64,000 bases of DNA from Corallococcus silvisoli (lineage in GTDB: Bacteria > Myxococcota > Myxococcia > Myxococcales > Myxococcaceae), in the NCBI RefSeq assembly GCF_009909145.1, contig NZ_JAAAPJ010000005.1, positions 528,470-592,469 on the forward strand, read 5' to 3'. The translations under genes were made by a program, and so were the position numbers. The notes beneath the pieces were generated by a model. The model was not told the DNA's origin. It was given only the letters and a program-made list of their open reading frames with translations, and did no database searches. Numbering within the stretch: position 1 is the first letter of the stretch; each line of letters begins with the position of its first letter. This document shows positions 1 to 55,496 of this stretch, in pieces.

Positions 1-645
1 GAGCTGGACGTCGCCGCCGTGGGGCGCCCGCCCCTGCGCCTGGTGGCCATCGTCACGCGCGCCGGGCCCATCCTCCCCGCCCCCGGAGAGCCGGAGGACT
101 CCGGCCCCCACGCCCCGGGGCCGTATCAGGACCTGAGCTATGAAATCTCCACCGAGCTGGCGTCGTTCGGGACGCTCAAGGCCGTCTGGAACTCGGGGAC
201 GCCGCAGCCGGACGACCGGGTGGGCCGGCCGTGCTTCGGCGCCTTCGCCCACCGCGACACGCCCTGTCTGGACTGCCCGCTGACGGCGGCGGCGACCACC
301 GCCTGGCCCCACACCATCGTGCGGCACGCGGACGCCGCCAGTGACGGCTACGAGGTCGTCACCGCCACCCCGACCGGGGCCGGCACCGCGCGGATCACCG
401 TGCACACGATTGGCGACGCCACGCTCACCGGCCTCTTCGAGGCGAAGGTGCGCAGGATGGCGCTCACCGCGCGGCTCTCCGAGCGGGAGGGTGATGTCTT
501 GCGTTACCTCGCGCTCGGCCGCTCCTCCACCGACATCGCCGCGGTGTTAGGCATTACCGAACGCACCGTAAAATTCCATCAAGCCAATCTCTTGCGAAAG
601 CTGGGAGCGGAGACGCGGTACGACCTGCTCCGCCTGTTCTTCTGA
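1..645 (+). CDS. LuxR-family transcriptional regulator (C-terminal HTH), 5' end probably truncated by window edge
   Basis: C-terminal 'EREGDVLRYLALGRSSTDIAAVLGITERTVKFHQANLLRKLG' matches the LuxR/GerE-type HTH. The ORF is open to the window start (first in-frame GTG at 19). Confidence 0.7.
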   Translation, partial: ELDVAAVGRPPLRLVAIVTRAGPILPAPGEPEDSGPHAPGPYQDLSYEISTELASFGTLKAVWNSGTPQPDDRVGRPCFGAFAHRDTPCLDCPLTAAATTAWPHTIVRHADAASDGYEVVTATPTGAGTARITVHTIGDATLTGLFEAKVRRMALTARLSEREGDVLRYLALGRSSTDIAAVLGITERTVKFHQANLLRKLGAETRYDLLRLFF

Positions 646-783
646 TCAGGCCCCCTTCCCTGGGGGACAGCATTCCCATTCCGAATCGCTTGCGCCATGC
701 TGGCGTCTCGACTCGGGCGTCCTGCGGGTCGGGGGGGCCGTTGCCCATGGGCAGCGCCGGCATACTCCATCTCAAAGACAGAC

Positions 784-2991
784 ATGGCGCGCGAGCGTTC
801 GCGCGGGGACGCGCCGCCCGTGGCTGAGACTCCGGGCTGGGATGAGGTGATGCGGGAGTTCCTGGTCGAGTCCCGCGAGCACGTGCAGGGCATCGAGGCG
901 ACGGTGCTGGAGCTGGAGGCGCAGCCGGGTTCGCAGGCGCTGCTGGCGCAGCTCTTCCGCAGCCTCCACACGGTCAAGGGCACCTGCGGCTTCCTGGGCT
1001 TCTCCCGCCTGGAGGCGCTGATGCACGCCGCGGAGGAGCTGCTCGGGCTGGCGCGCGACAGGCGCCTCACGCTGGACCGGGAGCGCGTCTCCACGCTGCT
1101 GGCCATCGCGGACGCGGCGCGAGGGGCGCTGGAGCACATCGAGGCGACGGGGCTGGAGCCCGCGGTGGACCACTCCGCGCTGTTCGCCCGGATGGCGGGC
1201 GCGACGGCGGCGTCCGCGCCCCTGGCGGCCTCCGAGCCCCTGACGCCACCGGGCACCCTGCCCTGGCGCGGCGCGGCCACCGGCATGGACTCCAAGCTGC
1301 GCGTGGACGTGGCGCTGCTGGACCGGCTGATGAACCTGATGGGCGAGCTGGTGCTGGCGCGCAACCGCATCCTCCAGTGCGCCACGTCCCCCGCGCCGGG
1401 CGCGGAGCTGGTCACCGCGTCGCAGCGGCTGGACGTCGTGACGACCCAGGTCCAGCAGGTGGTGATGAAGACGCGGCTGCAGCCCGTGGGGCAGGTGTGG
1501 AACCGCTTCCCCCGGCTCGTGCGCGAGCTGGCGAACGGGTGCGGCAAGCAGGTGCGGCTCCAGTTGCAGGGCGCGGACACGGAGCTGGACAAGACGCTGG
1601 TGGAGGCGCTGCATGATCCGCTCACCCACCTGCTGCGCAACGCCGTGGACCACGGCGTGGAGACGCCCGAGCAGCGCCGCGAGCGCGGCAAGCCGCCCGT
1701 GGGGTGCGTGACGCTGCGGGCGTCGCACGAGGGCGGGCTCGTGCACCTGGGGATGTCCGACGACGGCGCGGGCATCGACGTGCAGCGCGTGCGTCAGGTC
1801 GCGGTGCAGCGGGGCCTGTTGACGGCGGAGCAGGCCGCGCGGCTGCCGGACGCGGACGCGCTGATGCTCATCTTCATGCCCGGCTTCAGCACCGCCGAGC
1901 GCGTGACGTCGCTGTCCGGCCGGGGGGTGGGCATGGACGTGGTGCGCACGCAGGTGGAGCGCATTGGCGGCACCGTGGAGGTGCACAGCCGGCCCGGCCA
2001 GGGCACGACGTTCACCCTGAAGATCCCCCTCACGCTGGCCATCATCCCCGCGCTGCTCGTCACCTGCCGGGGGGACCGGTACGCGCTGCCACAGGCCAGC
2101 CTCCGCGAGGTGGTGTGGTTGGAGCCGGAGCAGGCCCGGCGCGACGTCACCCGCATCCAGGGCGCGTGCGTGCTCCGGCTCCGGGGGGAGCTGATGCCGT
2201 TGGTCGTCCTCGCCTCGGAGCTGGGCGTGGGGCCCGCCATGCCGGACCTGGAAGAAGGCGTCACCGTCGTCGTGTTGCAGGCCGGGGAGCACTCCTTCGG
2301 GCTGTGGGTGGACGCCATCCACGACACCGAGGAGATCGTCGTCAAGCCGCTGTGGAAGCACCTGAAGGGGCTGGCCTGCTACGCGGGCGCGACGGTGCTG
2401 GGCGACGGGCGCGTGGCGCTCATCCTGGACGCGATGGGGCTGGGACGCCGCGCGGGCACCCTCGACGAGACGCAGGCCCAGGTCGTCATCCCCGAGCCCG
2501 TCCCGGAGGTGGCGCCGCGGCCCGAGGCGCCGCGCGAGCGGGTGCTCCTGTGCCGCACCGGCGAGGAGGGCCGCGTGGCCATCCCGCTGTCGCGCGTGGC
2601 GCGGCTGGAGGAGCTGCCCGCCTCGGACGTGGAGCGCTTGAGCGGAGGCATGGAGATGGCGCGCTACCACGGCCAGCTCCTCCCGCTGGTGCGCGTGGCC
2701 TCCGTGCTGGCGTCTCGACAGGGCGCGACGGAGACGCTCACCCAGGCGCTCCAGGCCGCGGCGGGCGCGTCCCTGTCCGTCGTCGTCACCTCTCACGCGG
2801 AGACGCGCGTGGGGCTGGTGGTGGACGCCATCCTCGACATCGCGGAGGTGGACTTCGCGCTCCAGCGCGAGACGCGGCGCCCGGGAGTGCTGGGCTCCAT
2901 GGTGGTGCAGAGCCGGGCCACCGAATTCCTGGACGTGGAGGGCACCGTGCGCGCCGTGCACCCGGAGCTGCTGACGGGCGGTACGCCATGA
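784..2991 (+). CDS. cheA: Chemotaxis histidine kinase CheA (Hpt, dimerization, HATPase_c, plus more than one CheW-like segment)
   Basis: Hpt motif 'LFRSLHTVKGTCGFLGF'. Kinase block 'LTHLLRNAVDHGVE ... GMSDDGAGID ... GRGVGMDVV'. CheW-like C-terminal regions. Stop overlaps the cheW ATG (ATGA). Start at 784, 847 or GTG 697 not resolved. Confidence 0.9.
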   Translation: MARERSRGDAPPVAETPGWDEVMREFLVESREHVQGIEATVLELEAQPGSQALLAQLFRSLHTVKGTCGFLGFSRLEALMHAAEELLGLARDRRLTLDRERVSTLLAIADAARGALEHIEATGLEPAVDHSALFARMAGATAASAPLAASEPLTPPGTLPWRGAATGMDSKLRVDVALLDRLMNLMGELVLARNRILQCATSPAPGAELVTASQRLDVVTTQVQQVVMKTRLQPVGQVWNRFPRLVRELANGCGKQVRLQLQGADTELDKTLVEALHDPLTHLLRNAVDHGVETPEQRRERGKPPVGCVTLRASHEGGLVHLGMSDDGAGIDVQRVRQVAVQRGLLTAEQAARLPDADALMLIFMPGFSTAERVTSLSGRGVGMDVVRTQVERIGGTVEVHSRPGQGTTFTLKIPLTLAIIPALLVTCRGDRYALPQASLREVVWLEPEQARRDVTRIQGACVLRLRGELMPLVVLASELGVGPAMPDLEEGVTVVVLQAGEHSFGLWVDAIHDTEEIVVKPLWKHLKGLACYAGATVLGDGRVALILDAMGLGRRAGTLDETQAQVVIPEPVPEVAPRPEAPRERVLLCRTGEEGRVAIPLSRVARLEELPASDVERLSGGMEMARYHGQLLPLVRVASVLASRQGATETLTQALQAAAGASLSVVVTSHAETRVGLVVDAILDIAEVDFALQRETRRPGVLGSMVVQSRATEFLDVEGTVRAVHPELLTGGTP

Positions 2992-3476
2992 GCGACCCGC
3001 GCCAGCTCTGCTCGTTCCTGGTGGGCGAGCACCTGTTCGGCCTGGACATCGAGCGGGTGCAGGAGATCCTCCTGCCGCCCCCGCTCACGCGCGTCCCTGG
3101 CGCCCCGCCGGAGGTGGCGGGCCTGCTCAACCTGCGCGGGCAGATCGTCCCCGCCATCGACCTGCGCCGCCGCCTGGACCTGCCGGAGGCCACGGCCCCC
3201 GCGGACGCGCCCCACGTGGTGCTTCGCGGTGACGACGGCGCGGTGAGCCTGCGCGTGGATGCCATTGGCGACATCCTCCCCTTCGTCGACGCGAAGCTGG
3301 CCCCGGTGCCAGACAACCTGCGCGGGCCCCTGCGCTCGCTGCTGTTGGGCGTCCACGCGCTTCCAGACCGGCTGTTGTTGGTGTTGTCCGCGGACGCGGT
3401 GGTGGACGGGCTGTCGCCCGCGTCCAACCCCGCCGCATCCCCTTCCCTTTCCGCGCTTCCCCAGGAGCCCCACTGA
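2988..3476 (+). CDS. cheW: CheW coupling protein
   Basis: '[19 protein letters not shown]...[21 protein letters not shown]' is a typical CheW fold. Translationally coupled to cheA upstream and to the MCP downstream (TGATG overlap). Confidence 0.88.
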
Positions 3477-5578
3477 TGGCCCGCACCTCCGCGCCCACCG
3501 AGAAGACCAGCCTCTTCCACCGCCTGGGGGGCAAGGCCGCCCTGACGGCCGCCGTGCAGAAGCTCTACGCGCGCGTGATGACGGACACCCAGCTCACGCC
3601 CTACTTCCACCGCACGGACCTGGTCCCGCTGCAGCGCCAGATGGTCACCTACCTCACGCAGCTGCTGGGCGGGCCCGCGCTCTATCACGGCCGGTCGATG
3701 CGTGACGTGCACGCGAGGATGGACCTTCAGCCCCAGCACTTCGAGCGCGTCGCCGAACACCTGGCCCACGTCCTGGACGACCTGGACGTGCCGGGCCCCC
3801 TCGCCCAGGAGGTCCTGGCGGCGGTGGGCGCGCTGCGGGACGACATCGTGAGCCCGTCCGCGCCCAAGTCCTCCTCCCCTCCCGCGACGCCTCAGGCTCC
3901 GGCGCGCTCGCCCCGGACCGCGGGACGGCGGATCGCCAAGGGCCCCTCCCGCGCGCCGCGCTCCTCCCGCCGCCGCGCGTCCATGTCCCTGGGGAGCGGC
4001 CTGGGCGAAGCGCTGCTGGACGCGGCGCGGGTCAACCTCTTCGTGCTGGACATGGACCTGGGCATCGTCTTCGCGAACGCGTCCGCCATGGAGGCCATCG
4101 AGCGCATCGAAGAGAGCGATGCGTTCCCAAGCCATGGCGCGGACGAAGCGGGCGGCGACTTCCTCTCCCGCTTCGAACACCAGCTGCGGCGCGAGGAGGG
4201 CCGGCTGAACACGCCGTCGGCGCTGCCTCACGAGGCCGCCTTCTCCGTGGGCGCGCTCCAGCTCAAGGCCCGCGTGGACGGCATCCTGGACAAGGCGGGC
4301 GCGCTCACCGGCTACGTGGTGAACTGGACGGACGTCACGGAGAAGCAGCGCACGGACACGGAGATGGCGCGCCTGCGGGCCATGCTGGAGAACGCGCCCA
4401 CGTGCGTGATGGTGGCGGACGTGGACCTGAGGATCGTCTACCTGAACCCGGCATCGCGCCGGTTGTTGCAGCGGGTGGAGAAGCACCTGCCGGTGACGGC
4501 GGACCGGGTGATCGGCTCGACCATCGACGTCTTCCACCGGGACGCGGCGTACCAGCGGAAGATCCTGGCCAACGACAAGAACCTGCCGGTGCGCGCGAAC
4601 ATCCCCATCGGGCCGGAGATCGCGGACCTGCTGGTGACGGCGGTGTACGACGGCCAGGGCCGCTACCTGGGGCCCATGGTGACCTGGGAGCTCATCACCG
4701 AGAAGCTCGCCGTGCAGCAGCGGGAGAAGGAGCTGGACACCACCCTGCGCGGCATCTTCCAGGAGGTGACGCAGCACTCGCAGACGCTCGCGGCGTCGTC
4801 CCAGGAGCTGTCCAGCGTCAGCCAGCAGATGGTGAGCAACGCGCAGGAGACCGCGGCGCAGGCCACCCAGGTGTCCGCGGGCGCCGAGCAGGTCAGCCGC
4901 AACGTGCAGCGCGTCGCGTCCGGCATGGAGGAGGTCAACGCGAACATCCGGGAGGTGGCGCGCAACGCGAGCACCGCGGCCCGGGTGGCGTCCTCCGCCG
5001 TCAAGCTGGCGGACGGCACGTCCGTCGTCGTGGGCAAGCTGGGGACGAGCAGCCAGGAGATCGGCAAGGTCATCAAGGTCATCACCTCCATCGCGCAGCA
5101 GACCAACCTGCTGGCGCTCAACGCGACCATCGAGGCGGCGCGCGCGGGCGAGGCGGGTCGGGGCTTCGCGGTGGTGGCCAACGAGGTGAAGGAGCTGGCG
5201 CGCGAGACGGCCCGGGCCACGGAGGACATCGGGCTGAAGATTGGCAGCATCCAGGGGGACACCGAGGAGGTGGTCAACGCCATCCTGGAGATTGGCGCCA
5301 CCATCGGCCGGATCAACGAGTTGCAGACCTCCATCGCGTCGTCCGTGGAGGAGCAGACGGCCACCGCGGGGGAGATCCTCCGCAACGTGGGAGAGGCGGC
5401 CAAGGGCAGCCAGCAGATCTCCGAGAACATGGCCGCCGTGGCGGAGGCCGCGCGCAGCACCACCGAGGGCGCGGGCAGCACGCAGCGCTCGGCGGTGGAG
5501 CTGGCCCACATGGCGCAGTCACTGCAACGGCTGGTCATCCAGGTGGACACCACGGACAAGCAGAACCGGTCGAAGTAG
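3476..5578 (+). CDS. Soluble methyl-accepting chemotaxis protein with N-terminal truncated hemoglobin (2/2 Hb) domain, two PAS-like domains and MCP signalling domain
   Basis: N-terminal ~120 aa '[38 protein letters not shown]...[20 protein letters not shown]' matches the group-I truncated globin signature (GG motifs, proximal His). PAS-like segments follow. MCP highly conserved domain '[37 protein letters not shown]'. No TM segments. Confidence 0.85.
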
Positions 5579-5608: not shown

Positions 5609-7132
5609 GTGAGAACCGGACTGATGCGATGGTGGGAGCTGGGCCGCGTCGCCCAGGCCTCCAAACGCCTGCGGCGCGCGTCCCGCCCCCAGGACGTGGA
5701 GCCCGCGCGGCACGAGCTCGCCGAGCGATTGCTCGGGCTGCGCGGGCTGCCCCAGAAGGTGGGGCAGGTGCTCACGCTCTCCGAGCTGGGCACGGACACC
5801 CCGGGGTTCGGTTCGCTCGCGGAGGCGCCCTCCCCGCTCGCGCCCGAGGCCGCGCTGGAGGAGATCTCCCGCCGGCTGGGCAGGCCGTGGCGGGAGGTGT
5901 TCGCGACACTGGAGGGCGTGGGCATCACCGCGTCGCTGGGGCAGGTGCACCGGGGCGTGCTGCGGGGCGGGCGTGCCGTGGCGGTGAAGCTGCGGCACCC
6001 GGGCATCGTGGACGCCGTGCGGGATGATCTGCGCGCGCTGGGGTGGCTGGCGGCGCCGCTGGGCGGCTGGCGCGGGAAGCTGGACCTGTCCGCCTACCGT
6101 CGCGAGCTGGCGGAGATGCTCCAGCGCGAGCTGGACTACCACCTTGAGGCCCAGGCCCTGCGGGACGCGAACGCGCGCCTGTCGGAGGTGCCGGGCGTCA
6201 CCTCCCCGGTGCCGGTGGACGCGCTCGTGCGCGAAGACCTGCTAGTGATGAGCTGGGTGGAAGGCCAGCCGCTGGCGGAGGCCCGGCGCTGGAGCGACGC
6301 GGACCGCCGCGCGCTGGCCACGACGCTGGTGCGGCTGTTCCTCCACGGCTGCTTCACGTGGGGCGTGCTGCACGCGGATCCACACCCGGGCAACTACCGC
6401 GTGTCACGAGGCCCGGACGGACGGCCCGTGCTGGGGGTGCTCGACTTCGGCTGCGTGAAGCCGATTCAACCCGAGCTGCCCCTGGGGCTGGGCCGGTTGA
6501 TCGCGCTCCTCCGGGGACCCGCGCCGGAGGCCGACCATTTGCTATCCGCGTGGGTCACGCTGGGCTTCGCGCCAGAGCTGCTGGAGCCCATGGCGGAGGC
6601 GCTGCCCGCCATCAGCCAGGTGCTCCTGGAGCCCTTCCTCCAGGACCGCCCCTTCGAGGTCAGGAGCTGGCGGTTGGGGGCGCGGATCTCCGAAGCCCTG
6701 GGGCCCCACCGGTGGAACTTCCGAGCGGCAGGTTCCGCCTCGCACCTCTACGTCCTGCGCGCGTTCCATGGGCTGGTGCGCCACCTGGAGGTGCTGGACG
6801 CGCCGCTCGCCTGGGGCCCCCTGCTGGACGAGGCGCGCGCCCCCTCGCTGCCGCCTCCGCTTCCACCGCCCGCTTCGCACCTCGAGGGGGCGGCCAGGTA
6901 CCTGCGGGTGCGGGTGACGCAAGGGTGCCTCACGCGCGTGGCGCTGACCTTCCGCGCGGATGTGACGGCGCACCTGGAAGAGCTGTTGCCGGACGACCTG
7001 GCGCGAAGGCTCGCGGCGCGGGGCCTGGATCCAGCGGCCATCGGCGCGGCGGCGGTGGCCTCGGGGCTGCGGCCTTCGGAGCTGTTCCACCTGGACGAGG
7101 GCGACCGGCAAGTCCGGGTCTGGCTCGAGTGA
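5609..7132 (+). CDS. ABC1/UbiB-family atypical protein kinase
   Basis: 'ASLGQVHRGVLRGGRAVAVKLRHPGI', 'ELDYHLEAQAL', 'LVMSWVEGQPL' and 'GVLHADPHPGNYRV' align with the ABC1/ADCK kinase signature. Lies inside the che operon. True start may be ATG 5624. Confidence 0.8.
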   Translation: MRTGLMRWWELGRVAQASKRLRRASRPQDVEPARHELAERLLGLRGLPQKVGQVLTLSELGTDTPGFGSLAEAPSPLAPEAALEEISRRLGRPWREVFATLEGVGITASLGQVHRGVLRGGRAVAVKLRHPGIVDAVRDDLRALGWLAAPLGGWRGKLDLSAYRRELAEMLQRELDYHLEAQALRDANARLSEVPGVTSPVPVDALVREDLLVMSWVEGQPLAEARRWSDADRRALATTLVRLFLHGCFTWGVLHADPHPGNYRVSRGPDGRPVLGVLDFGCVKPIQPELPLGLGRLIALLRGPAPEADHLLSAWVTLGFAPELLEPMAEALPAISQVLLEPFLQDRPFEVRSWRLGARISEALGPHRWNFRAAGSASHLYVLRAFHGLVRHLEVLDAPLAWGPLLDEARAPSLPPPLPPPASHLEGAARYLRVRVTQGCLTRVALTFRADVTAHLEELLPDDLARRLAARGLDPAAIGAAAVASGLRPSELFHLDEGDRQVRVWLE

Positions 7133-7154: not shown

Positions 7155-7493
7155 ATGGTCACCATCGGCATGAACTACGAAGTGCGAGAGGGCAAGGCGG
7201 AGGCCTTCGAGCGGAAGTTCGCGCTCGTGTTGGAGGCCATGCGAGCGCTGCCCGAGCACGCCAGGACGGAGCTGTTCCGGAGCGTGGAGGCTCCGGGCCG
7301 CTATCTCATCGTCTCCGAGTGGCACACCCGCGAGGGCTTCGACGCCTTCGTCACCTCGGAGGCCTTCCACCGGGTGACGGACTGGGGCGCCAGCGCCATC
7401 CTCGCGAGCCGGCCCCGGCACGAGGTGTACGGCAACGCGGCCTCCAGTTCCCCCGCCGGGGGCCGCTGCCCGGTCGCGCACGCGGCCCGGTGA
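7155..7493 (+). CDS. ABM (antibiotic biosynthesis monooxygenase)-domain protein
   Basis: ~110 aa; 'MVTIGMNYEVREGKAEAFE...YLIVSEWHTREGFDAFVTSEAFH' is a typical ABM/Dabb ferredoxin-like fold signature. Confidence 0.65.
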   Translation: MVTIGMNYEVREGKAEAFERKFALVLEAMRALPEHARTELFRSVEAPGRYLIVSEWHTREGFDAFVTSEAFHRVTDWGASAILASRPRHEVYGNAASSSPAGGRCPVAHAAR

Positions 7494-7504
7494 AGAGGGG
7501 GCCC

Positions 7505-8569
7505 ATGAACGCCATCCGGGTCCTGGTGGTGGACGACGCGGCCGTGGTGCGGCGGCAGGTGTCCCTGCTGCTGGACGCGGATCCGGGCCTGGAGGTCGTC
7601 GCCACCGCGCCCAACGGCCGCATCGCGCTGACGAAGGTGGAGCAGTTCCAGCCGGACGTGGTGCTGCTGGACCTGGAGATGCCGGACCTGGACGGGCTGG
7701 AGACGCTCAAGCTGCTGCGACAGCGCGCGCCAGAGCTGCCGGTGGTGATGTTCAGCGCGCTCACCGAACGCGCGGGCGTCCTCACCCTGGAGGCGCTCGC
7801 GCTGGGGGCGCGTGACTACGTGACGAAGCCCACCTCCGCCGGGGGCCTGCACGTCACCGTGGAGGCGGTGCGGGAAGAGCTGGTGCGCAAGCTCAAGGCG
7901 CTCCATGTGCGCGCGTCCCCCGCGCCCCCCGCGCAGGCCTCCGTCCCACGCGCGCCCCGGGCCCGCGCACACGCGCCCTCGCGCGTGGAGGCCATCGTCA
8001 TCGGCGCGTCCACCGGGGGCCCCGGCGCGCTGGTGCGCGTGGTGTCCGCGCTGCCCGCGGATCTGCCGGTGCCGGTGCTCATCGTGCAGCACATGCCGCC
8101 CCTCTTCACCCGGCTGCTCGCGGAGCGCCTGGAGGCCGCGAGCTCGCTGCGCGTGCGCGAGGCGGTGTCCGGAGCGTTCGTCCAGCCCGGCGCGGTGTGG
8201 GTCGCGCCGGGGGACTTCCACCTGGCCGTCCGCCGGGATGCGGCGGGAGTGCGGCTGCACACGCATCAGGGGCCCGCGGAGAACGCCTGCCGGCCGGCGG
8301 TGGACCTGCTCTTCCGCTCCGCGGCGGACGTGTACGGCCCGGGCGTGCTGGCGGTGGTGCTCACCGGCATGGGGCAGGACGGCCTGCGCGGATGCCGCCG
8401 GGTGAGCGAGTCGGGCGGTCAGGTGGTGGTGCAGGACCAGGCCAGCTGCGTCATCGGCAGCATGCCGGGCGTGGTGGAGCAGGCGGGGCTCGCGGACGCC
8501 GTGGTGCCGCTGGACACCCTGGCCACGGAGTTGGTGCGGCGCGTGGAAGCACGCGGAAAGAGGACGTAG
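7505..8569 (+). CDS. cheB: Chemotaxis response regulator protein-glutamate methylesterase CheB
   Basis: Receiver 'RVLVVDDAAVVR...VVLLDLEMPDLDG'. Methylesterase 'IVIGASTGGPGAL...LIVQHMPPLFT...GMGQDGLRG'. Confidence 0.9.
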   Translation: MNAIRVLVVDDAAVVRRQVSLLLDADPGLEVVATAPNGRIALTKVEQFQPDVVLLDLEMPDLDGLETLKLLRQRAPELPVVMFSALTERAGVLTLEALALGARDYVTKPTSAGGLHVTVEAVREELVRKLKALHVRASPAPPAQASVPRAPRARAHAPSRVEAIVIGASTGGPGALVRVVSALPADLPVPVLIVQHMPPLFTRLLAERLEAASSLRVREAVSGAFVQPGAVWVAPGDFHLAVRRDAAGVRLHTHQGPAENACRPAVDLLFRSAADVYGPGVLAVVLTGMGQDGLRGCRRVSESGGQVVVQDQASCVIGSMPGVVEQAGLADAVVPLDTLATELVRRVEARGKRT

Positions 8570-8571
8570 TC

Positions 8572-9456
8572 ATGCCCCTGCTTCCCGAGGACTTCTCCTA
8601 CCTGCGCCAGCGCGTGCTGCGAAGGTCCGGGTTGGTGCTGGAGTCCGACACGCACGCGCTGGTGGAGACGCGGCTCACGCCGCTCATGCGCGAGGAGCGA
8701 CTCCCCGACATCACCACCCTGGTGGCGCGGCTGCGCTCGCAGCCCGAGGGCAGCGCGCTCCACCAGCGGCTGGCCGAGGCCCTGGCCAACCACGAGACGG
8801 CCTTCTTCCGGGACGCGCCGGTGTTCGACGCCCTGCGCTCCACGGTGCTGCCCGCCCTGCTGGCCCGGCGCGGCCGGACGCGGACGCTGCGCATCTGGTG
8901 CGCGGCGTGCGCCTACGGGCAGGAGCCCTACAGCGTGGCGATGACGCTGGCGGAGGCGGGGCTGCTCATCACCGGCTGGACGGTGCGCATCCTCGCGACC
9001 GACTTCTCCCTCCGCGCCCTCAGCCGCGCCAGCGAGGCCCGCTATGAAGCCCAGGAGCTCCACCGCGGCGTGACGCCCGTCCTGCGCCAGCGCTACTTCC
9101 ACCAGGAGCGCGACGGGTGGCGGCTGAACGAACAGGTGCGCAAGCCGGTGGAGTTCCGCCCGCTCAACCTGATGGAGGACTTCCCACTGGAGGCGCCCGT
9201 GGACCTCGTGCTGCTTCGCAACGTGATGATCTACTGGGACGTACCCACGCGGCGCGCGGTGCTCGCCCGCGTGCGGCGGATGCTGCACGCCGACGGCTAC
9301 CTGGTGCTGGGCGCCGCGGAGGCCGCGCCCCTGGTGGAGGACGGCTTCACGCGGCACCTCATCGGGCAGACGAGCTGGTACCGCCCCGCGCCCCTCTCCA
9401 CCGGCGCGCCCGTGGAGCACGGCTCGCGCACGCCCCACTCCAACGCTACACCTTGA
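8572..9456 (+). CDS. cheR: Chemotaxis protein methyltransferase CheR
   Basis: 'ETAFFRDAPVFDAL...LRIWCAACAYGQEPYSVAMTL...ILATDFS...LLRNVMIYWD' (CheR SAM-MTase). Starts 3 nt after the cheB stop. Confidence 0.9.
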   Translation: MPLLPEDFSYLRQRVLRRSGLVLESDTHALVETRLTPLMREERLPDITTLVARLRSQPEGSALHQRLAEALANHETAFFRDAPVFDALRSTVLPALLARRGRTRTLRIWCAACAYGQEPYSVAMTLAEAGLLITGWTVRILATDFSLRALSRASEARYEAQELHRGVTPVLRQRYFHQERDGWRLNEQVRKPVEFRPLNLMEDFPLEAPVDLVLLRNVMIYWDVPTRRAVLARVRRMLHADGYLVLGAAEAAPLVEDGFTRHLIGQTSWYRPAPLSTGAPVEHGSRTPHSNATP

Positions 9457-18026: not shown

Positions 18027-20701
18027 CGGAGGAAGTCCCGGATGCTCGACAGGTGGAGCTTCTGGGATTCGGCGCACAACTGGATGGACTCCAGGGCCCG
18101 GGCCAGGGCGCGTGGACCGCCTTCGATCTTCTCCACGCGGGGCTTGAGGAACGCCTCCACCTGGGCCCGCTGCGTCTCATCACAGAGATTTCCCAGACGG
18201 CCAATCAGCCCGCCCATCTCGTCCGAGCGCAGTCGCTGCGCCAGCTCATCGAAGTGCGCCTGATAGAAGCTCAAGGCCCGCGACTGCGACTCCGGGATGA
18301 CCAGCGCCATCTTGAGGATGATCTCGGAGTCCCTGACGTCGAAGTCCGACCCCATGACGAGCGCCAGCGCCCGCTCCACCAGCTCCGGGGCGCGGAAGAA
18401 GGCCAGGGCCGTCAACAGCCGCGTGCGCTCGTTGCGGTCCTGTTCCTTCTTCGCGGCCGCCAGCAGCGCGTCGAACAACGCCGCGTCCCCGTGCGCCGCC
18501 GCCCAGGGCAACGCATTCGACAGCGCCTCGGGATCCACTGACTTGCGGTCCGCCAGCCACGCACGGACCAGCGGCGCGGCCTCCTTCGCCAGCTTGGGAT
18601 CATCGCCGAGCCCCGCCGCCAGCGCGAGCAAAAGCGAGCGCGACTGCGTCATCGCGTCATCGTCTCCGGCCTTGGGCATCCAGCCGAGTGCGCGCGCGCG
18701 CGGCGCATAGAGCGACGCCACCCAGGCCCGGAAGCGCTGCCGCTCCTCCACCGTGAGCTGATCCTCACGCACCCGGTGAAGCAACGCGGCGCCCCCCTGC
18801 ACCACCAGGCGATCCGCCGACCGGGCGGTGGCGGGCACCGCGCTCAAGGCCTGCCCCAGCGGCAGGATCCCCCGAGTCACCGCCGCGTCCACGTCCGCCC
18901 AGAGCGCCACCTGCTCCCCCACCGTGAAGGCGGTGGCCGGCGTCGAGAGCAGCTTCGTCAATTGCTCCCGCGTGTAGCCGCCCCGGTAGTAGCCCGTGCC
19001 GCCCGCGTTGAGCAGCACCCACGCCGGGCACTGCTTCAAAGGCAGGGACACCTCCGCCGTCCGCCCCTCCATCATCGAGCACACGCGGGACGACTGCGCG
19101 CCGGTTCCCGCGCGAAGGCACACAGGCACGAGCCATTCCTGCTGGGAGCTCGCCTGCGACCCCACCGGCAGGTAGCGCTCCTGCGACAGCTTCACCGTCG
19201 GCGTGCCTCCCTTGGGGCATGACACCTGCGCGGACACGCTCGCCGCGCCGCCCTGCTCGATGAAACCGCCAAAGGACCGCGCCACCTCCGGTCCCGCCGC
19301 CTGGGACAGGTCCGCGAGGAAGTCCTCCATCGTCGCGACGCCCCAGGCGTGCTTGCGGACATACCCGCGCAGCGCCTCGCGGAAGCGCTCCGGACCCAGC
19401 CACGCCTCGAACATGGCGATGACGGACGAGCCCTTGTCATACGTCGTCCCGTTGTCGAAGGAGCCGACGATGTCGCTGTTGCTCGTCACCGGCTTGCGCA
19501 CCGGCAGCGCGGCCTCCAGCGCGTCCGACTCCAGCGCGTTGCGGGTCGCGGACATGGCGCGCTCCTGCTGGAAGTTCCAGGAAGGCTCCAGCCGGTCCAC
19601 CGTCTGCCGGTCCAGCCACGCGGTGAAGGACTCGTTCAGCCAGATGTCGTTCCACCACGCGCAGGTGACGACGTCGCCGAACCAATAGTGGCCCAGCTCA
19701 TGGTTGGCGATGACGGCGTAGGACTTGCGCCGGGCCAGCGTCTCCTCGCCAGGCGGGATGAGCGTGAGCGGCTGTCCGAGCGCGACGATGCCCGGGTGCT
19801 CCATGGTGCCCCAGTAGCGGGGCACCACCGCCACATCCAGCTTCTCGTACGGATAGGTCTGATCGAAGAAGTCCTCCAGGCCCTTCACGATGCGCGGCGT
19901 GATGCTCGCGGCGTACCGCGTCTCCGCGCCCCGGCCCTTCGGCACGACGAAGCGCAGCGGCACGCTCGCGCGCCCCACCGTGCCGGCCTCCACCACGTCG
20001 AACGGCCCCACCATGAAGGCCACGAGGTAGCTGGGCATGGGCTTGCTCTCCGCGAACGTGACCCGCTCCAGCCCGTCCGTCAGCGGCTCGCGAGACACGA
20101 CGGGATGGTTGGCCACCGCCACGTGCCCCGCCTTCACCGTGAAGCGCAGGCGCCACGGCACCTTGAAGGTCGGCTCGTCGAAGCACGGGAACGCGCGGCG
20201 CGCGTCGATGGGCTCGAAGAACGTGTAGAGGTAGGGCTCGCCCCCTTCCGCCTGGCCGTAGATGCCCTGGCTGCGCTCGCGGTCCACCTTGCCGGTGAAG
20301 TCGATCACGAGCCGCGCCCGGCCCGCCGGCAACGCCTCCGGCAACAGCAAGCCCAGGCGCCCCTCGTCCGCTGTCACCGGCTTCGCCTCCAAGGTGCGGT
20401 CGCCCACCACGACCCGGGCTCGCGTCACCTCCAGGTCCTGCGCGTGCAGCCACACCTGGCGCACCGGCTCACGGACCTCCACGTCGATGGTGACGCTGCC
20501 CGGATAGGTGTCCTCCGAAGGCACCAGCTTCAGATCCAACGCGTAGTGCACGGGCCGCACGGTGTCCGGCAGACGCAGCGCGGGGGGAAGGGCCTCCGGC
20601 CACGCGACGGCGGGAGGCGCGGAGGCGGACGGCGCGGCCTCCGGTGCGTGGGCACAGCGGACGGTCAAAGCCAACAGGACGAGCAGAGGGAGCAGACGCA
20701 T
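18017..20701 (-). CDS. Secreted M1-family aminopeptidase N
   Basis: Gluzincin motif 'VIANHELGHYWFGD ... WLNESFTAW' (HExxH+E). Signal peptide 'MRLLPLLVLLALTVRCAHA'. Confidence 0.9.
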   Translation of the reverse strand: MRLLPLLVLLALTVRCAHAPEAAPSASAPPAVAWPEALPPALRLPDTVRPVHYALDLKLVPSEDTYPGSVTIDVEVREPVRQVWLHAQDLEVTRARVVVGDRTLEAKPVTADEGRLGLLLPEALPAGRARLVIDFTGKVDRERSQGIYGQAEGGEPYLYTFFEPIDARRAFPCFDEPTFKVPWRLRFTVKAGHVAVANHPVVSREPLTDGLERVTFAESKPMPSYLVAFMVGPFDVVEAGTVGRASVPLRFVVPKGRGAETRYAASITPRIVKGLEDFFDQTYPYEKLDVAVVPRYWGTMEHPGIVALGQPLTLIPPGEETLARRKSYAVIANHELGHYWFGDVVTCAWWNDIWLNESFTAWLDRQTVDRLEPSWNFQQERAMSATRNALESDALEAALPVRKPVTSNSDIVGSFDNGTTYDKGSSVIAMFEAWLGPERFREALRGYVRKHAWGVATMEDFLADLSQAAGPEVARSFGGFIEQGGAASVSAQVSCPKGGTPTVKLSQERYLPVGSQASSQQEWLVPVCLRAGTGAQSSRVCSMMEGRTAEVSLPLKQCPAWVLLNAGGTGYYRGGYTREQLTKLLSTPATAFTVGEQVALWADVDAAVTRGILPLGQALSAVPATARSADRLVVQGGAALLHRVREDQLTVEERQRFRAWVASLYAPRARALGWMPKAGDDDAMTQSRSLLLALAAGLGDDPKLAKEAAPLVRAWLADRKSVDPEALSNALPWAAAHGDAALFDALLAAAKKEQDRNERTRLLTALAFFRAPELVERALALVMGSDFDVRDSEIILKMALVIPESQSRALSFYQAHFDELAQRLRSDEMGGLIGRLGNLCDETQRAQVEAFLKPRVEKIEGGPRALARALESIQLCAESQKLHLSSIRDFLRTH

Positions 20702-25303: not shown

Positions 25304-26935
25304 CTACGCGTTGCGACGCACCATCGCGACCTCGTAGCGGCGGTCCGTCACGTAGCCGTTCGCGGCCTGGCCGGGGCGGTACATCTTCCCGCTCTGGTCA
25401 TCCACGTAGAAGCGGTTGTTGGGATTGGTGTCCTTGCCCTTGCTGGCGTTGGACGTGCCCGGGTCGTGGAACGTGTAGTAGGTGCGGCCCTTGTCGTCGA
25501 CGCCACGGCCCGTGATGGTCACGAAGTGGTCCGTGAGGCCATCCGCGTTGTAGTTCGCGTCCTTGTGGCTGACCCCCACCACCACCGGCTTGCCCGCGTC
25601 CAGCTGCCGGTCGATGTAGTCGCGGCCCTCCTTGGCCTTCTTCGAGTCCACCGTGAGCTGGCCGGTGCTGTTCTCGCTCTTGCCCACCTGGATGCGGTTC
25701 TCCGGTCCCGTCACCTTCGCGCCCGACGCGCCCGCCATCGCCGTCGCGGCCTTGAAGCACGCCGTGTCGCTCGCGGTGTAGCCGTGGCCGTTCTCGAACT
25801 GGCTGTAGTACGGCACCTTCACGTGGACCGAGGGGCCGGACTTCGACGGGGCCACCTGCTGCGTGTCCGTGCGGTCCGCCTCCGTGGTGGGCCGCGAGGT
25901 CATGGTGCCGCCCGTCTTGTTCGGAGGGACGATGCCCGTGTTGCCCGGCGTCGCCGCGCCGCCCGTCTTGTTCGGAGGGACGATGCCCGTGTTGCCCGGC
26001 GTCGCGGTGGCGCCCGCCTTCTCCTTCTTGAGCATCGCGAGCGCGTCCTTGGCCTCTGACTTGAAGCGGTTGGCCACGCCCTTCTGCACGTCCCGGGAGT
26101 TGCCGGAGAAGTGCACCAGGGTGCCGCTGGCGTTCGTGCGGCCGCGCTCGGCGTAGATGTCCTTGATGAGCTGCTCGTCGCTCACCTTGGCGGGGTCGCG
26201 CCCGGCCAGCGCCTTCTTGAAGATGTCATCCGCCGCGCCCGGGCCGTGCTGCACCGACGTGGACCAGGCCACGTCGCGCAGCGCCGCGGACCGCTTGTCC
26301 AGGTCGATGCCTGTCGCCTTCTTGATGTTCGCGGCGCCCACGTCGTAGTGCGTGGCCTTGATGTAGTCGTGCTGGGCCTTGTCGAAGCCCTTCGGGTCCT
26401 TCGCCGCCAGCTGCTTCCACGCCGTGGAGAACGCCGGCGTGCCCGGCTTGCTGCCTGACAGCGCCTTGTAGAAGTCCGGGTTCGACTTCTTCAGCGAGTT
26501 CACGAACGACTGCGCCGAGCCGTTCGCCGAGGCGAACTGGTAGGAGCCGTAGGACACGCCGCCCCGGTCCCCCTTGCCCGTGGAGACGGTGCCGGGACCG
26601 CGCGCCTCGTACTTGCGGCTCAGCCCGCCCAGCTCCCCATCCGCCGTACGGGTGGAGGGCGTCGCCGTGGAGGTGGCCGGCGCCTTCGTGCCCCCGGTGG
26701 ACTGCGCGAAGCTGTCGCCCTGCGCCTTGCCCCCCGCGTTCGAACCGCGCGGGCCCTTCGTGTCGAAGCCGTCCTTCAGCTGGAGCGTCTGCCCCGCGAG
26801 GATCCTGTTCGGATCCTTGATGTTGTTCGCCTTGGCCAGCGCGTCCACCGACGTGTTGTAGCGCCTGGCGATCTCGGAAAGGGTGTCACCGGAACGCACG
26901 CGGATGCTGGAGACGGTCATGGAAAGCCCTCTCAT
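25304..26935 (-). CDS. LysM-domain protein with central unknown domain and C-terminal papain-like (C39-like) cysteine peptidase domain
   Basis: LysM 'IRVRSGDTLSEIARRYNTSVDALAKANNI'. C-terminal 'VPYYSQFENGHGYTASDTACFKA ... DHFVTITG' resembles the Peptidase_C39-like Q/C/H arrangement. Internal exact 17-aa tandem duplication. Start at 26935 or 26920. Confidence 0.6.
   Translation of the reverse strand: MRGLSMTVSSIRVRSGDTLSEIARRYNTSVDALAKANNIKDPNRILAGQTLQLKDGFDTKGPRGSNAGGKAQGDSFAQSTGGTKAPATSTATPSTRTADGELGGLSRKYEARGPGTVSTGKGDRGGVSYGSYQFASANGSAQSFVNSLKKSNPDFYKALSGSKPGTPAFSTAWKQLAAKDPKGFDKAQHDYIKATHYDVGAANIKKATGIDLDKRSAALRDVAWSTSVQHGPGAADDIFKKALAGRDPAKVSDEQLIKDIYAERGRTNASGTLVHFSGNSRDVQKGVANRFKSEAKDALAMLKKEKAGATATPGNTGIVPPNKTGGAATPGNTGIVPPNKTGGTMTSRPTTEADRTDTQQVAPSKSGPSVHVKVPYYSQFENGHGYTASDTACFKAATAMAGASGAKVTGPENRIQVGKSENSTGQLTVDSKKAKEGRDYIDRQLDAGKPVVVGVSHKDANYNADGLTDHFVTITGRGVDDKGRTYYTFHDPGTSNASKGKDTNPNNRFYVDDQSGKMYRPGQAANGYVTDRRYEVAMVRRNA
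25908..26012 (-). repeat. Exact 51-bp tandem duplication inside the LysM-peptidase gene
   Basis: 'cccgtcttgttcggagggacgatgcccgtgttgcccggcgtcgc' occurs twice consecutively, encoding ATPGNTGIVPPNKTGGA x2. Confidence 0.7.
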
Positions 26936-27111
26936 GTCCGACCGCGAACAGACACATCGCGGACGCGATTGGATTTCCACGATTATCGAAAGGCAATGCG
27001 CGCGGTTTCGCATTGACAGTCACAATCACGTAAAGCATGTGATTCCGGCTACTTCAGTTTCCACGGATCAATACGACGTCATCAAAGGACATGCCCAGGA
27101 GGTCCAGCCAG

Positions 27112-36347: not shown

Positions 36348-36383
36348 CCGTCAGCCAGGGCCCACCCGCATGCGAGGTGAACC

Positions 36384-38564
36384 ATGAAGCTCAGAACCGC
36401 CGTCACCACCGCCGTGCTGCTGTTGCCCCTGGTGTCCACGGCCGCGGGCAAGGCGCCCGCGAAGCCCGCCGCCGCGGAGAAGCAGCCCGTGGAGAACACC
36501 TACCACGGCACCGCCGTGACGGACCCCTACCAGTGGATGGAGTCCGCCACCGACCCCAAGGTGCGGCAGTGGACCGACACGCAGAACGCCTACACCCGCG
36601 CGACGCTGGACAAGCTCCCCGGCCGCGAGCCGCTGCGCCAGCGCATCACCGAGCTGCTGTCGTGGAAGTCCGCCGCGTACGGCGGCCTGGATGAGCAGGG
36701 CGGCACGCTGCTGGCGCTGAAGTTCCAGCCGCCCAAGCAGCAGCCGACGCTGGTCGCCGTGGGCCAGGTGGACGACCTGTCGAAGGAGCGCGTGCTGGTG
36801 GACCCCACGCAGGTGGATGCGTCCGGCAAGACGACCATCGACTGGTTCCAGCTGTCGCACGACGGCAAGAAGGTCGCGGTGTCGATGTCGAAGGGCGGCA
36901 CGGAGAGCGGCGACGTGTCCGTGTATGACGTGGCCACGGCGAAGGCGCTGCCCAACGAGCTGGTGCCGCGCGTCAACGGCGGCACGGCGGGCGGCAGCCT
37001 CGCGTGGAACGCGCAGGGCACGGGCTTCTTCTACACGCGCTATCCGCGCGGCGAGGAGCGCCCCCCCGTCGACCGCGAGGTGTACCAGCAGGTGTACTTC
37101 CACGCGCTGGGCACGCCCACGGAGAAGGACACGTACGAGCTGGGCAAGGACTTCCCGCGCATCGCGATGACCAACCTGGAGTCGAGCGACGACGGCCAGT
37201 ACACCTTCGCGCGCGTCGCCAACGGGGACGGCGGCGAGTTCGAGCTCTACCTGCACGGCCCCACGGGCACGTGGGCGCAGGTGGCGAAGTTCACCGACAA
37301 GGTGGTGTCGGCGCGCTTCGGCGGTGACGGCGCGGCGTACCTGCTCAGCCGCAAGGACGCGCCGCGCGGCAAGGTGCTGCGCCTGCCCCTGGCCACGCCG
37401 ACGCTGGACAAGGCGACGGTGCTGGTGCCGGAGAGCGAGGCGACGGTGCAGTCCATCCTGCCCACGCAGAGCCGCGTCTACCTGGTGGAGCAGCTGGGCG
37501 GTCCTTCCCAGCTGCGCATCGTGGACCTGACGGGCAAGGCGCAGGGGCTGGTGCCGACGCTGCCGGTGTCCTCGGTGGGCGGCGCGGTGCGACAGGGCGC
37601 GGACGACCTGCTGTTCGTCAATGGCAGCTTCACCCAGCCGACCGCGTGGTTCCGCTACACGGCGAAGGACGGCAAGGTGGCGAAGACGGCGCTGGCGCGC
37701 ACGTCGCCCATCGACATGAGCGACGTGGAGGTGGTGCGCACGGAGGCCACGTCGAAGGACGGCACGAAGGTGCCGCTCTCCATCCTGAAGAAGAAGGGCA
37801 CGAAGCTGAACGGCAACAACCCGGCGTGGCTGACGGGCTACGGCGGCTTCAACCTCGCCGTCACGCCGGGCTACAACGCGCTCGCGGGCATGTGGCTGGA
37901 GCAGGGCGGCGTGTTCGCGGTGGCGAACCTGCGCGGCGGCTCGGAGTTCGGTGAGGCCTGGCACCAGGGAGGTTCGCTGACGAACAAGCAGAACGTGTTC
38001 GACGACTTCTACGCGTGCGCGAAGCTGCTGACGGACCAGAAGTACACGCAGCCGAAGAAGCTGGTCATCCAGGGCGGCAGCAACGGCGGCCTGCTGATGG
38101 GCGCGGCCGTGACGCAGCACCCGGAGCAGTACGGCGCCGTGGTGGCGCGCGTGGGCATCTACGACATGCTGCGCACGGAGCTGACGCCCAACGGCCAGTT
38201 CAACGTCACCGAGTACGGCTCGGTGAAGGACCCGGCGCAGTTCAAGGCGCTGTATGGCTATTCGCCGGTGCACCACGTGAAGGACGGGACGAAGTACCCG
38301 TCGGTGCTCTTCACGTCCGGGGCGAACGACCCGCGCGTGGATCCCTTCCACTCGCGCAAGATGGTGGCCCGGATGCAGGCGGCGACGGCGTCCCCGAAGC
38401 CCATCCTGCTGCGCGCCAACGCGGAGACGGGGCACGGCATGGGCACGCCGCTGTCCGCGCGCATCGAGGAGGAGGTGGACGTCTACTCCTTCGTCTTCAA
38501 CGAGCTGGGCATGACGTACAAGCCCAACGCGACGAAGAAGGTCGCCGCCCCCGCGCCGCAGTAG
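36384..38564 (+). CDS. Secreted prolyl oligopeptidase (S9A) family serine peptidase
   Basis: N-terminal beta-propeller. Catalytic 'IQGGSNGGLLMG' (GGSxGG nucleophile elbow). 'GANDPRVDP' and 'ETGHGMG' carry the Asp/His. Signal peptide present. Confidence 0.88.
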   Translation: MKLRTAVTTAVLLLPLVSTAAGKAPAKPAAAEKQPVENTYHGTAVTDPYQWMESATDPKVRQWTDTQNAYTRATLDKLPGREPLRQRITELLSWKSAAYGGLDEQGGTLLALKFQPPKQQPTLVAVGQVDDLSKERVLVDPTQVDASGKTTIDWFQLSHDGKKVAVSMSKGGTESGDVSVYDVATAKALPNELVPRVNGGTAGGSLAWNAQGTGFFYTRYPRGEERPPVDREVYQQVYFHALGTPTEKDTYELGKDFPRIAMTNLESSDDGQYTFARVANGDGGEFELYLHGPTGTWAQVAKFTDKVVSARFGGDGAAYLLSRKDAPRGKVLRLPLATPTLDKATVLVPESEATVQSILPTQSRVYLVEQLGGPSQLRIVDLTGKAQGLVPTLPVSSVGGAVRQGADDLLFVNGSFTQPTAWFRYTAKDGKVAKTALARTSPIDMSDVEVVRTEATSKDGTKVPLSILKKKGTKLNGNNPAWLTGYGGFNLAVTPGYNALAGMWLEQGGVFAVANLRGGSEFGEAWHQGGSLTNKQNVFDDFYACAKLLTDQKYTQPKKLVIQGGSNGGLLMGAAVTQHPEQYGAVVARVGIYDMLRTELTPNGQFNVTEYGSVKDPAQFKALYGYSPVHHVKDGTKYPSVLFTSGANDPRVDPFHSRKMVARMQAATASPKPILLRANAETGHGMGTPLSARIEEEVDVYSFVFNELGMTYKPNATKKVAAPAPQ

Positions 38565-38648
38565 CCCGCCTCCCCCCGCCCGTCTCCGGCCCCTGGGCGC
38601 TGGAGACGGGCGTTTCTTCTCCCGCGTTTCGTGGCACCCTGGCGCCCC

Positions 38649-39083
38649 ATGAGCCCCCTCATCCCCTACTTCATCCTCTCGCCCGTGGTCGCCGGAGGCC
38701 TGGCCTGGTGGACGCTCACCCGCCTGGGCCGCAAGCGCAACGAGCGCGCGAAGGGCTCGCTGGACGCGGTGGTGACGCGGCTGCGCGGACAGAAGGCGGC
38801 CGGCACGGTGGACCTGTTCGTCCAGGACGTGTCGTGGTCCGGGGAGACGGAGCTGTCGCCGCAGAACTGCCGCGTCCGCGTCGTGATGGGCGGCCGGGAC
38901 GCGGCGGGCATCCCGGCGCGCTTCGAGGTGGAGAGCGCCCCGGGAGCCCCCCGCCCGCCCACGGACGTGCTCGCGGCGCTGCGCGTGCTGGATGCTCAGG
39001 CGATGGAGGCCCTGAAGTCCGGCGGCTGGAAGTGGCAGCGGCCCACGATTGGCTTCGAGCCAGCGGCGTCGCAAGTCCAGTGA
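38649..39083 (+). CDS. Hypothetical small membrane-anchored protein
   Basis: N-terminal TM 'LIPYFILSPVVAGGLAWWTL'. No recognised domain. Start at GTG 38631 or ATG 38649. Confidence 0.4.
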   Translation: MSPLIPYFILSPVVAGGLAWWTLTRLGRKRNERAKGSLDAVVTRLRGQKAAGTVDLFVQDVSWSGETELSPQNCRVRVVMGGRDAAGIPARFEVESAPGAPRPPTDVLAALRVLDAQAMEALKSGGWKWQRPTIGFEPAASQVQ

Positions 39084-39213
39084 CCGGGAAGCGGTCTCGG
39101 CGCACGGAGGGTCCGCGACGGGCTTGAGCCCCCGACGGTCACGGAGGCTGACCGGCGTCGTTCGCCACACTGGCGGGGGATTCCTGTGACGGGGTGACGC
39201 AACGGGTGCCAGC

Positions 39214-52793: not shown

Positions 52794-55496
<2,703 letters not shown>

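Follow-up and report, generated by a model that had tools for sequence, protein, structure and literature searches.

We analyzed a 64,000-nucleotide stretch of the genome of Corallococcus silvisoli (RefSeq assembly GCF_009909145.1, contig NZ_JAAAPJ010000005.1, positions 528,470 to 592,469 of the forward strand; hereafter the window), which contains a gene for a soluble chemoreceptor of 700 amino acids (aa) at 3476..5578 on the forward strand. The protein carries, in this order, a group-I or N-type truncated hemoglobin (trHbN), a linker, two PAS domains, and the signaling hairpin of a methyl-accepting chemotaxis protein (MCP). Its sequence and predicted structure suggest that it is probably an Aer2-like, heme-based gas (O2) chemoreceptor to which the truncated hemoglobin (trHb) is tethered as an extra module. 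An earlier note, made from the DNA sequence alone, had recognized the trHb-PAS-PAS-MCP arrangement and proposed the globin as the gas-responsive input. The arrangement and the solubility of the protein stood up to analysis, while the second PAS domain appeared as a second, better-connected candidate gas sensor and the globin as only loosely tethered.

The Receptor and Its PAS Domains

The start codon of the receptor gene overlaps the stop codon of cheW (TGATG) and is preceded by a Shine–Dalgarno sequence, AGGAG, at 3463-3467. The product is 100% identical to WP_143901171.1, which RefSeq labels as MULTISPECIES methyl-accepting chemotaxis protein [Corallococcus]. Pfam identified MCPsignal at aa 497-658 (E=7e-32), and its PAS models matched at approximately aa 298-355. 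A hydropathy scan found no transmembrane helix, the highest 19-residue Kyte–Doolittle window reaching 1.38, in line with the soluble protein that the earlier note had described. The AlphaFold2 (AF2) model of the full-length monomer had a mean predicted local distance difference test (pLDDT) of 79 and a predicted template modeling score (pTM) of 0.33; in it, aa 10-125 form a confidently modeled globin, aa 175-286 form PAS1, and aa 288-406 form PAS2. Both of the PAS domains proposed previously were confirmed, and they are homologs of one another.

The PAS region provided the strongest link to a characterized receptor. The best NCBIfam model for the whole protein was that of the Vibrio Aer2 aerotaxis transducer, aligned to aa 180-419 with a score far below its equivalog cutoff. 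When aa 170-452 were compared with the Protein Data Bank (PDB) using phmmer, convincing scores were obtained only with Aer2 PAS-heme structures, namely those of Pseudomonas aeruginosa Aer2 (3VOL, E=2e-15; 4HI4) and of PAS2 of Vibrio cholerae Aer2 (6CEQ, E=1.6e-12). In Aer2, a His in Eη, a Leu in Hβ, and a Trp in Iβ ligate the heme and transduce O2 binding (PMC10107281). The receptor's PAS2 (4337..4693, +), an Aer2-type PAS-heme domain by sequence, aligned to Aer2 with its His-bearing stretch over IDVFHKNPAHQR and VTWEL over VQWTD, such that His354 (Eη), Leu385 (Hβ), and Trp404 (Iβ) correspond to His234, Leu264, and Trp283 of the P. aeruginosa protein. All three residues were invariant in our alignment A1, and in the MCP-proximal PAS domains of 120 homologs the His was conserved 118 times and the Trp in every case.

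PAS1 (3998..4333, +) retains an Aer2-like PAS fold but is degenerate. In the Corallococcus clade, Glu234 stands in the place of the Eη-His (F233-E234-H235) and an Ala in that of the Hβ-Leu, with Trp284 kept; the globin-less relatives, in contrast, retained the His in 76 of 76 cases. Judged by these substitutions, Corallococcus PAS1 is probably heme-free.

The last strand of PAS2 runs, in the AF2 model, directly into a single unbroken helix of the kinase-control (MCP signaling) hairpin (4697..5572, +), in which an outgoing helix (aa 408-556) and a return helix (aa 558-699) are joined by a turn at 557, giving arms of ~149 and 142 aa. In the Aer2 core, the kinase-control module has 36 heptads (PMC10107281); the module of the receptor aligned to the E. 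coli Tar and Tap models over aa 418-690 without large indels. A motif scan returned candidate methylation sites of the QE/EE type at aa 440-447, 454-461, and 622-630. No HAMP domain was matched by Pfam in the receptor, and the ~56-aa single HAMP found in many relatives is deleted here; it is also missing in Hyalangium and in some metagenomic forms.

The receptor resembles the Aer2 proteins of P. aeruginosa (Aer2/McpB), V. cholerae, and Vibrio vulnificus in several ways. All are soluble MCPs encoded after cheA and cheW in a dedicated Che cluster, their tandem PAS domains belong to the same subfamily and bear the Eη-His, Hβ-Leu, and Iβ-Trp, and the N-terminal regions of Aer2 are variable and modulatory, to which the N-terminal part of the receptor may be likened. 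The differences are that the Aer2 core contains a di-HAMP between the signaling PAS and the kinase-control domain (PMC10107281) while the receptor is without any HAMP, that the Corallococcus protein has no C-terminal pentapeptide and its cluster no CheD, and that its PAS1 is degenerate. An N-terminal truncated hemoglobin is not among the Aer2 N-terminal arrangements discussed in PMC10107281.

The Globin Domain and Its Tether

The group-I (N) truncated hemoglobin domain (3503..3850, +; aa 10-125) was supported by Pfam, by phmmer searches of the PDB, and by AF2 modeling combined with Foldseek, all of which agreed with the assignment in the earlier note. The Pfam check that the note had proposed placed Bac_globin (PF01152) on aa 12-124; the score was 74 bits (E=1.5e-20), well over the gathering cutoff of 21. 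With aa 1-133 as the query against all PDB sequences, the best match was the trHb of Tetrahymena pyriformis (3AQ5, E=3e-19), aligned without gaps from aa 12-124 onto 6-118, followed by Chlamydomonas THB1 (E=2e-18), Mycobacterium tuberculosis HbN (E=2.5e-18), and the Paramecium and cyanobacterial GlbN proteins (E=1e-15 to 1e-17); group-II trHbs scored E=6e-9 or worse. A separate AF2 model of aa 1-130 reached a pLDDT of 89 and a pTM of 0.81. Foldseek placed it closest to HbN and the Paramecium and Tetrahymena trHbs, with template modeling (TM) scores of 0.86-0.96 and root-mean-square deviations (rmsd) of 0.9-1.2 Å; the match to HbN itself (TM 0.86-0.88, rmsd 0.9 Å) ranked above all group-II structures. 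The domain, as modeled, has the 2-on-2 alpha-helical fold.

We assigned the topological positions of the heme pocket via the Tetrahymena mutant chains Y25F (3AQ7), Q46E, and Q50E together with a constant offset of 2 from the HbN numbering. This gave Tyr31 as B10, Phe44 as CD1, Leu52 as E7, Met56 as E11, His79 as F8, and Val92 as G8. The earlier note had taken the lack of a proximal His as grounds for rejecting its reading; His79 aligns with the F8 His of both reference proteins, His73 in the Tetrahymena trHb and His81 in HbN. Across the 40 MCP-linked globins of relatives, Tyr31, Val34, Asp37, Phe44, Gly72, His79, His95, and Leu96 were invariant, as were, entirely or nearly so, the glycines of the two Gly-Gly motifs at 18-19 and 65-66. 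Position E11 varied, with Met in 18 of the 40 and Gln in 16. Read from these residues, the heme pocket is intact and the distal site is of group I and not of group II or III, with Tyr at B10 and Val instead of Trp at G8; the domain almost certainly binds heme b via His79 with a Tyr-B10 distal site.

The receptor globin is 33-35% identical to the group-I trHbs HbN, Tetrahymena, Paramecium, and Chlamydomonas THB1 and has the same fold. It has in common with them the Tyr at B10, the Phe at CD1, the Leu at E7 (where HbN also has Leu), the His at F8, the Val at G8, and the two Gly-Gly motifs, but differs from HbN at E11, where HbN has Gln and the Corallococcus receptor Met. The group-I proteins are stand-alone, whereas here the globin is one domain of a 700-aa signaling protein; a 2020 globin review gives bacterial chimeric T globins for groups O and P only.

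Membership among the HemAT-type globin-coupled sensors was rejected. Both kinds of protein are soluble and combine an N-terminal heme globin with a C-terminal MCP domain, but HemAT has a 3/3 globin of the protoglobin type, and we found no Protoglobin match, the domain being Bac_globin/trHbN by Pfam, phmmer, and Foldseek; the earlier note had been right to separate the two. Furthermore, the sensor globin of HemAT is directly linked to its output, while here a disordered linker and two PAS domains intervene.

This linker (3854..3988, +; aa 127-171, 45 aa) is rich in Pro, Ser, and Arg and was modeled with pLDDT <50. Among relatives, the distance between globin and PAS1 ranged from ~15 to 70 aa, and the linker sequence was not conserved. 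The stretch at 3848-3991 (aa 125-172) contains nine Arg and two Lys and no acidic residue, for a net charge of approximately +11. A basic N-terminal tail is also present in the globin-less Hyalangium ortholog (P0050), and the linkers of non-myxobacterial relatives are neutral. PMC12077210 describes FrzCD, a cytoplasmic receptor of Myxococcus xanthus, as binding DNA and forming nucleoid-associated arrays; by analogy, the basic tail might act like DNA-binding FrzCD.

Relatives with and without the Globin

To place the globin among its relatives, we searched 1.84 billion cluster representatives with the globin alone using phmmer and obtained 3,886 matches, the top of which was dominated by multi-unit trHbs. 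The best 150 of these matches included 49 representatives with a single globin, and these were sorted by architecture: 11 were trHb-PAS(1-4)-MCP, 5 were trHb-PAS, 3 were CheW-trHb, 2 were CheA with an inserted trHb, and the remaining 28 were stand-alone or other. Of these closest single-globin representatives, 21 of 49 were therefore fused to PAS/MCP, CheW, or CheA. A metagenomic protein of 1171 aa (P0015) contains two tandem truncated globins, four PAS domains, and an MCP domain.

A complementary genome scan with a PAS2 profile (alignment A4), using one genome per species, retrieved 240 relatives, and the best 80 loci were annotated. At least one Aer2-like PAS domain was present in every trHb-MCP examined; the profile scan recovers Aer2-like receptors whether or not they bear a globin but cannot find trHb-MCPs without this type of PAS. 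The gene order of the window was common to all nine Corallococcus/Myxococcaceae loci, and the window receptor is ~80-84% identical to its orthologs in other Corallococcus species. Farther away, fused trHb-PAS(1-6)-MCP proteins were found, in genomes or metagenome-assembled genomes (MAGs), in Acidobacteriota, Planctomycetota, Bdellovibrionota, Nitrospirales, Verrucomicrobia, Elusimicrobia, Polyangiaceae, and Binatia. Some RefSeq orthologs from Corallococcus exiguus are annotated with 398-404 aa, starting at PAS2 and without the globin and PAS1 (cluster P0026). These short proteins are 95% identical to the receptor over the common part, and the same 90% cluster holds a member of 698 aa.

The globin also occurs in other positions. 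In two acidobacterial loci, L021 (9506-11572) and L038 (9513-12154), a separate trHb gene lies upstream of a PAS-PAS-MCP gene: the globin reading frame ends in a stop codon of its own, after which come AAGGAGA and the ATG of the receptor gene. A Binatia locus, L064 (221-2597), has a trHb gene followed by a separate GAF-PAS-HAMP-MCP gene. All three are MAG assemblies, and in L021 the split is not an indel artifact since the stop is in frame. In Nitrospinaceae (L052, 11645-14260), CheA carries the trHb as an insertion behind its Hpt domain, and the gene adjoins that of a globin-less PAS3-MCP; the CheA-inserted form is further represented by P0247 and P0208. In the CheW-trHb proteins (P0224, P0248, and P0264; loci L006 and L008), the globin sits on the C terminus of CheW, and the genes lie beside RHH_4 and alpha/beta-hydrolase genes. 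We had expected these last genes in Che clusters, but those of L006 and L008 are orphans and are tied to the receptor system by domain logic only.

Conversely, receptors without the globin share the surrounding system. Globin-less Hyalangium rubrum, whose receptor is 62% identical, and Gemmataceae have the same CheA-CheW-MCP-CheY-CheB-CheR backbone. The cluster thus keeps its architecture without the globin, whose position is exchangeable. As the linker is disordered and variable and the globin is elsewhere a separate gene or attached to CheA or CheW, the globin looks more like an array-associated accessory than like a HemAT-like coupled sensor. A precedent for a separate sensory protein acting with an MCP is provided by CetA/CetB of Campylobacter and by Magnetospirillum CetBA2 (PMC12442639), which the split trHb and PAS-MCP genes of the three MAG loci resemble; the Cet sensor, however, is a PAS protein binding flavin adenine dinucleotide and not a globin, and the window encodes receptor and module as one protein.

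Gene Neighborhood

The receptor gene belongs to a cluster read entirely from the forward strand. It starts with a LuxR/GerE-type helix-turn-helix regulator (19..645), followed by cheA (697..2991; Hpt, dimerization, HATPase_c, and CheW-like domains, the true start probably being an internal ATG near 784), cheW (2988..3476), and the receptor. Downstream are a gene for an atypical kinase of the ABC1/UbiB family (5609..7132; Pfam ABC1 E=8e-43, below the UbiB equivalog cutoff), a gene for a 112-aa protein of the antibiotic-biosynthesis-monooxygenase (ABM) fold (7155..7493; Pfam ABM E=2.4e-15), cheB (7490..8569; REC and methylesterase domains, start at GTG 7490 or ATG 7505), and cheR (8572..9456). 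The cheA, cheW, and receptor genes appear translationally coupled, as their stop and start codons overlap (ATGA between cheA and cheW, TGATG between cheW and the receptor). The earlier note had described the receptor as the only MCP of an operon in which it sits between cheW and cheB; it is the sole MCP of the cluster, but cheB is not adjacent, the ABC1 and ABM genes lying in between. Neither cheY nor CheD is present in the cluster.

The ABC1 gene is associated with globin-bearing receptors. It directly follows the receptor also in distant globin-bearing clusters (L001, L003, L018, L023, L025, L035, L036, L040, and L046); the window protein is 44% identical over 493 aa to its counterpart in L003, where the trHb-MCP is 47% identical to the window receptor. 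When Corallococcus was counted once and genes were annotated from our own open reading frames (ORFs) and phmmer, ABC1 came immediately after the receptor in 8 of 22 globin-bearing loci and 2 of 39 globin-less ones (Fisher p=0.003, odds ratio ~10), in a set of loci that are not phylogenetically independent. The ABC1/UbiB-like kinase is a genuine partner of the globin-bearing receptors and is co-inherited with them.

The ABM gene sits where related clusters carry cheY. Its product gave weak, sub-threshold matches to a model of heme-binding proteins (E=9e-11) and to the heme-degrading model HmuQ (E=7e-4), and trHb-ABM fusion proteins are known from Streptomyces, according to a reference cited in PMC7475203. 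In two metagenomic clusters, a hydrophobic ORF of 120 aa lies between cheW and the trHb-MCP gene (L001, 9613-9975; L003, 3048-3410). It bears a weak, sub-cutoff Pfam likeness to DUF420 and has no counterpart in the window.

The GerE gene stands directly upstream of cheA in eight of the nine Corallococcus/Myxococcaceae loci, and the ninth (L011) ends upstream of cheW, at the end of its contig. We considered its product as a receiver-bearing response regulator and rejected this, as no REC domain was detected. Its N-terminal ~145 aa are not a receiver and contain a Cys-x10-Cys-x2-Cys motif (CFGAFAHRDTPCLDCP). Regulators of the REC-GerE type flank the related clusters L001/L002 and L077. The GerE protein may be a transcriptional output or a regulator of the cluster.

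Beyond the Che cluster, the window, with a G+C content of ~70-75%, looks like ordinary chromosome. It contains genes for a DAGK/YegS-like lipid kinase (9446-10366, reverse strand), a Fic-domain protein (10484-11200, forward), a PhzF-like protein (13417-15336, reverse), an M1 aminopeptidase (18017-20701, reverse), a LysM and VgrG3-C-like protein (25304-27013, reverse), DNA polymerase I (52794-55496, reverse), and an FHA-domain protein (55556-57772, reverse). Several long ORFs, such as 29858-34057 and 36351-39224, had no Pfam match and may be spurious ORFs of high-GC sequence.

Discussion

We favor a model in which PAS2 is the likely transducing O2 sensor, working by analogy as in Aer2. Binding of O2 to the PAS2 heme would displace Leu385 and rotate Trp404, and this motion would travel through the continuous helix to set the activity of CheA. 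The hairpin would pair with the co-transcribed CheW and CheA, and CheR and CheB would supply adaptation through its QE/EE motifs. PAS1, having lost the His ligand, would probably serve as a spacer or a modulator. The globin would be an accessory held at the chemosensory array and would not itself transduce the signal. One possibility is a second gas-binding modulator, comparable to the extra N-terminal PAS domains of the V. cholerae and V. vulnificus Aer2 proteins, which are modulators (PMC10107281); another is a module that processes O2 or NO in the manner of trHbN and thereby shapes what reaches the PAS heme.

Several points weigh against this model. The AF2 monomer, with its low pTM, gives nothing reliable on contacts between domains, docking of the globin included, and we infer the binding of heme for the globin and PAS2 alike. 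The di-HAMP of the Aer2 core being absent, the Aer2 mechanism transfers by analogy only. That this globin clade is paired with chemosensory proteins again and again shows it to be selected for a signaling role, and the globin might sense directly via transient docking on the PAS domains or the hairpin. Finally, with the ligand of PAS1 lost, the globin might have replaced PAS1 as the second sensor in Corallococcus.

A broader proposal, which we offer tentatively as one possibility, would generalize the accessory role from this receptor to the globin clade. Group-I trHbs of this clade would be dedicated accessory subunits of Aer2-like arrays, recruited interchangeably by fusion to the MCP or CheW, by insertion in CheA, or as a separate gene. 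They would act in trans with the PAS-heme receptor and the co-inherited ABC1/UbiB-like kinase, and all of these would form a multi-heme O2/NO sensing pathway that is possibly quinone/redox-coupled.

The model in the earlier note, with the trHb as the primary, HemAT-like sensor of O2, NO, or CO and the PAS domains as transmitters to the MCP, seems to us doubtful. The strict conservation of the globin heme pocket, the repeated fusion of the clade to MCPs of varied architecture, and the missing heme ligand of Corallococcus PAS1 speak in its favor. A primary sensor is, however, hard to reconcile with a disordered tether varying in both length and sequence, with globins that occur naturally as split genes or attached to CheA and CheW, and with globin-less orthologs in the same Che cluster. 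Moreover, within the scope of the scans given above, we found no trHb-MCP without an Aer2-type PAS domain keeping the His and the Trp.

It is rather improbable that the globin is solely an enzymatic or protective accessory, acting as a tethered NO dioxygenase of the trHbN type or an O2 buffer at the array that would shield the PAS heme from NO or set the O2 level nearby, maybe together with ABC1 and ABM in quinone or heme redox chemistry. Of the functions of group-I trHbs such as HbN, NO dioxygenation has the best support. The nearest solved relatives of the domain are of this group, with HbN as the best structural match, and the coexistence of tethered and in-trans topologies would suit a diffusible substrate. 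The enrichment of ABC1 next to globin-bearing receptors (8/22 vs. 2/39) and the weak likeness of the ABM protein to heme-binding or heme-degrading ABM proteins point the same way. The enrichment statistic, however, ignores the kinship of the loci, E11 is Met in Corallococcus where HbN has Gln, and the cluster offers no evident reductase partner. An origin of the fusion as an annotation or assembly artifact, or of the globin as a decayed non-heme remnant, for which the short C. exiguus annotations might be cited, is effectively refuted by the single unbroken ORF with its Shine–Dalgarno sequence and ATG, by the same arrangement in nine of nine Corallococcus/Myxococcaceae loci, by fused forms in many phyla, and by the invariant heme-pocket residues.

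The receptor and its cluster are already known as an in-silico description from the same genus; the trHb-PAS-PAS-MCP fusion, which the earlier note had called unusual, is not new. Sharma, Parales & Singer (2018) described the orthologous Cc_4972 (WP_014397685.1) of Corallococcus coralloides DSM 2259 as a protein with Bac_globin, PAS, and MCPsignal domains and no transmembrane helix, counted seven such proteins among 8,075 complete genomes, and proposed a role in aerotaxis and an origin by horizontal transfer (PMC6194562). The window receptor, from another species or strain, has the same domain set as Cc_4972 of the Cc-5 chemosensory cluster and likewise no transmembrane helix. That study does not class the globin as a group-I trHb and mentions neither Aer2 nor truncated globins. 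Its statements that ABC1 or ABM is found in no other cluster and the system in no other myxobacterium are both contradicted by the related loci studied here. What goes beyond PMC6194562 is the link to Aer2, the absent HAMP, the degenerate PAS1, and the enrichment of ABC1 next to globin-bearing receptors. The literature searched contained no experiments on a truncated-globin chemoreceptor, and a July 2026 aerotaxis review still cites the 2018 receptor as an in-silico prediction.

The value of the finding is limited by this precedent in the literature. Its remaining interest is that the class is missing from globin reviews and that the comparative data favor a looser, array-associated globin with a conserved ABC1 partner. 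To our knowledge, Corallococcus has no flagella, and the pathway therefore probably controls something other than swimming. The Aer2-type PAS2 and the globin offer precise targets for mutation, H354, L385, and W404 in the former and H79 in the latter. If characterized, the receptor would show how two chemically different heme sensors combine in one chemoreceptor, and it would tie a group-I truncated hemoglobin of bacteria, a family whose functions are debated, to a function in physiology.

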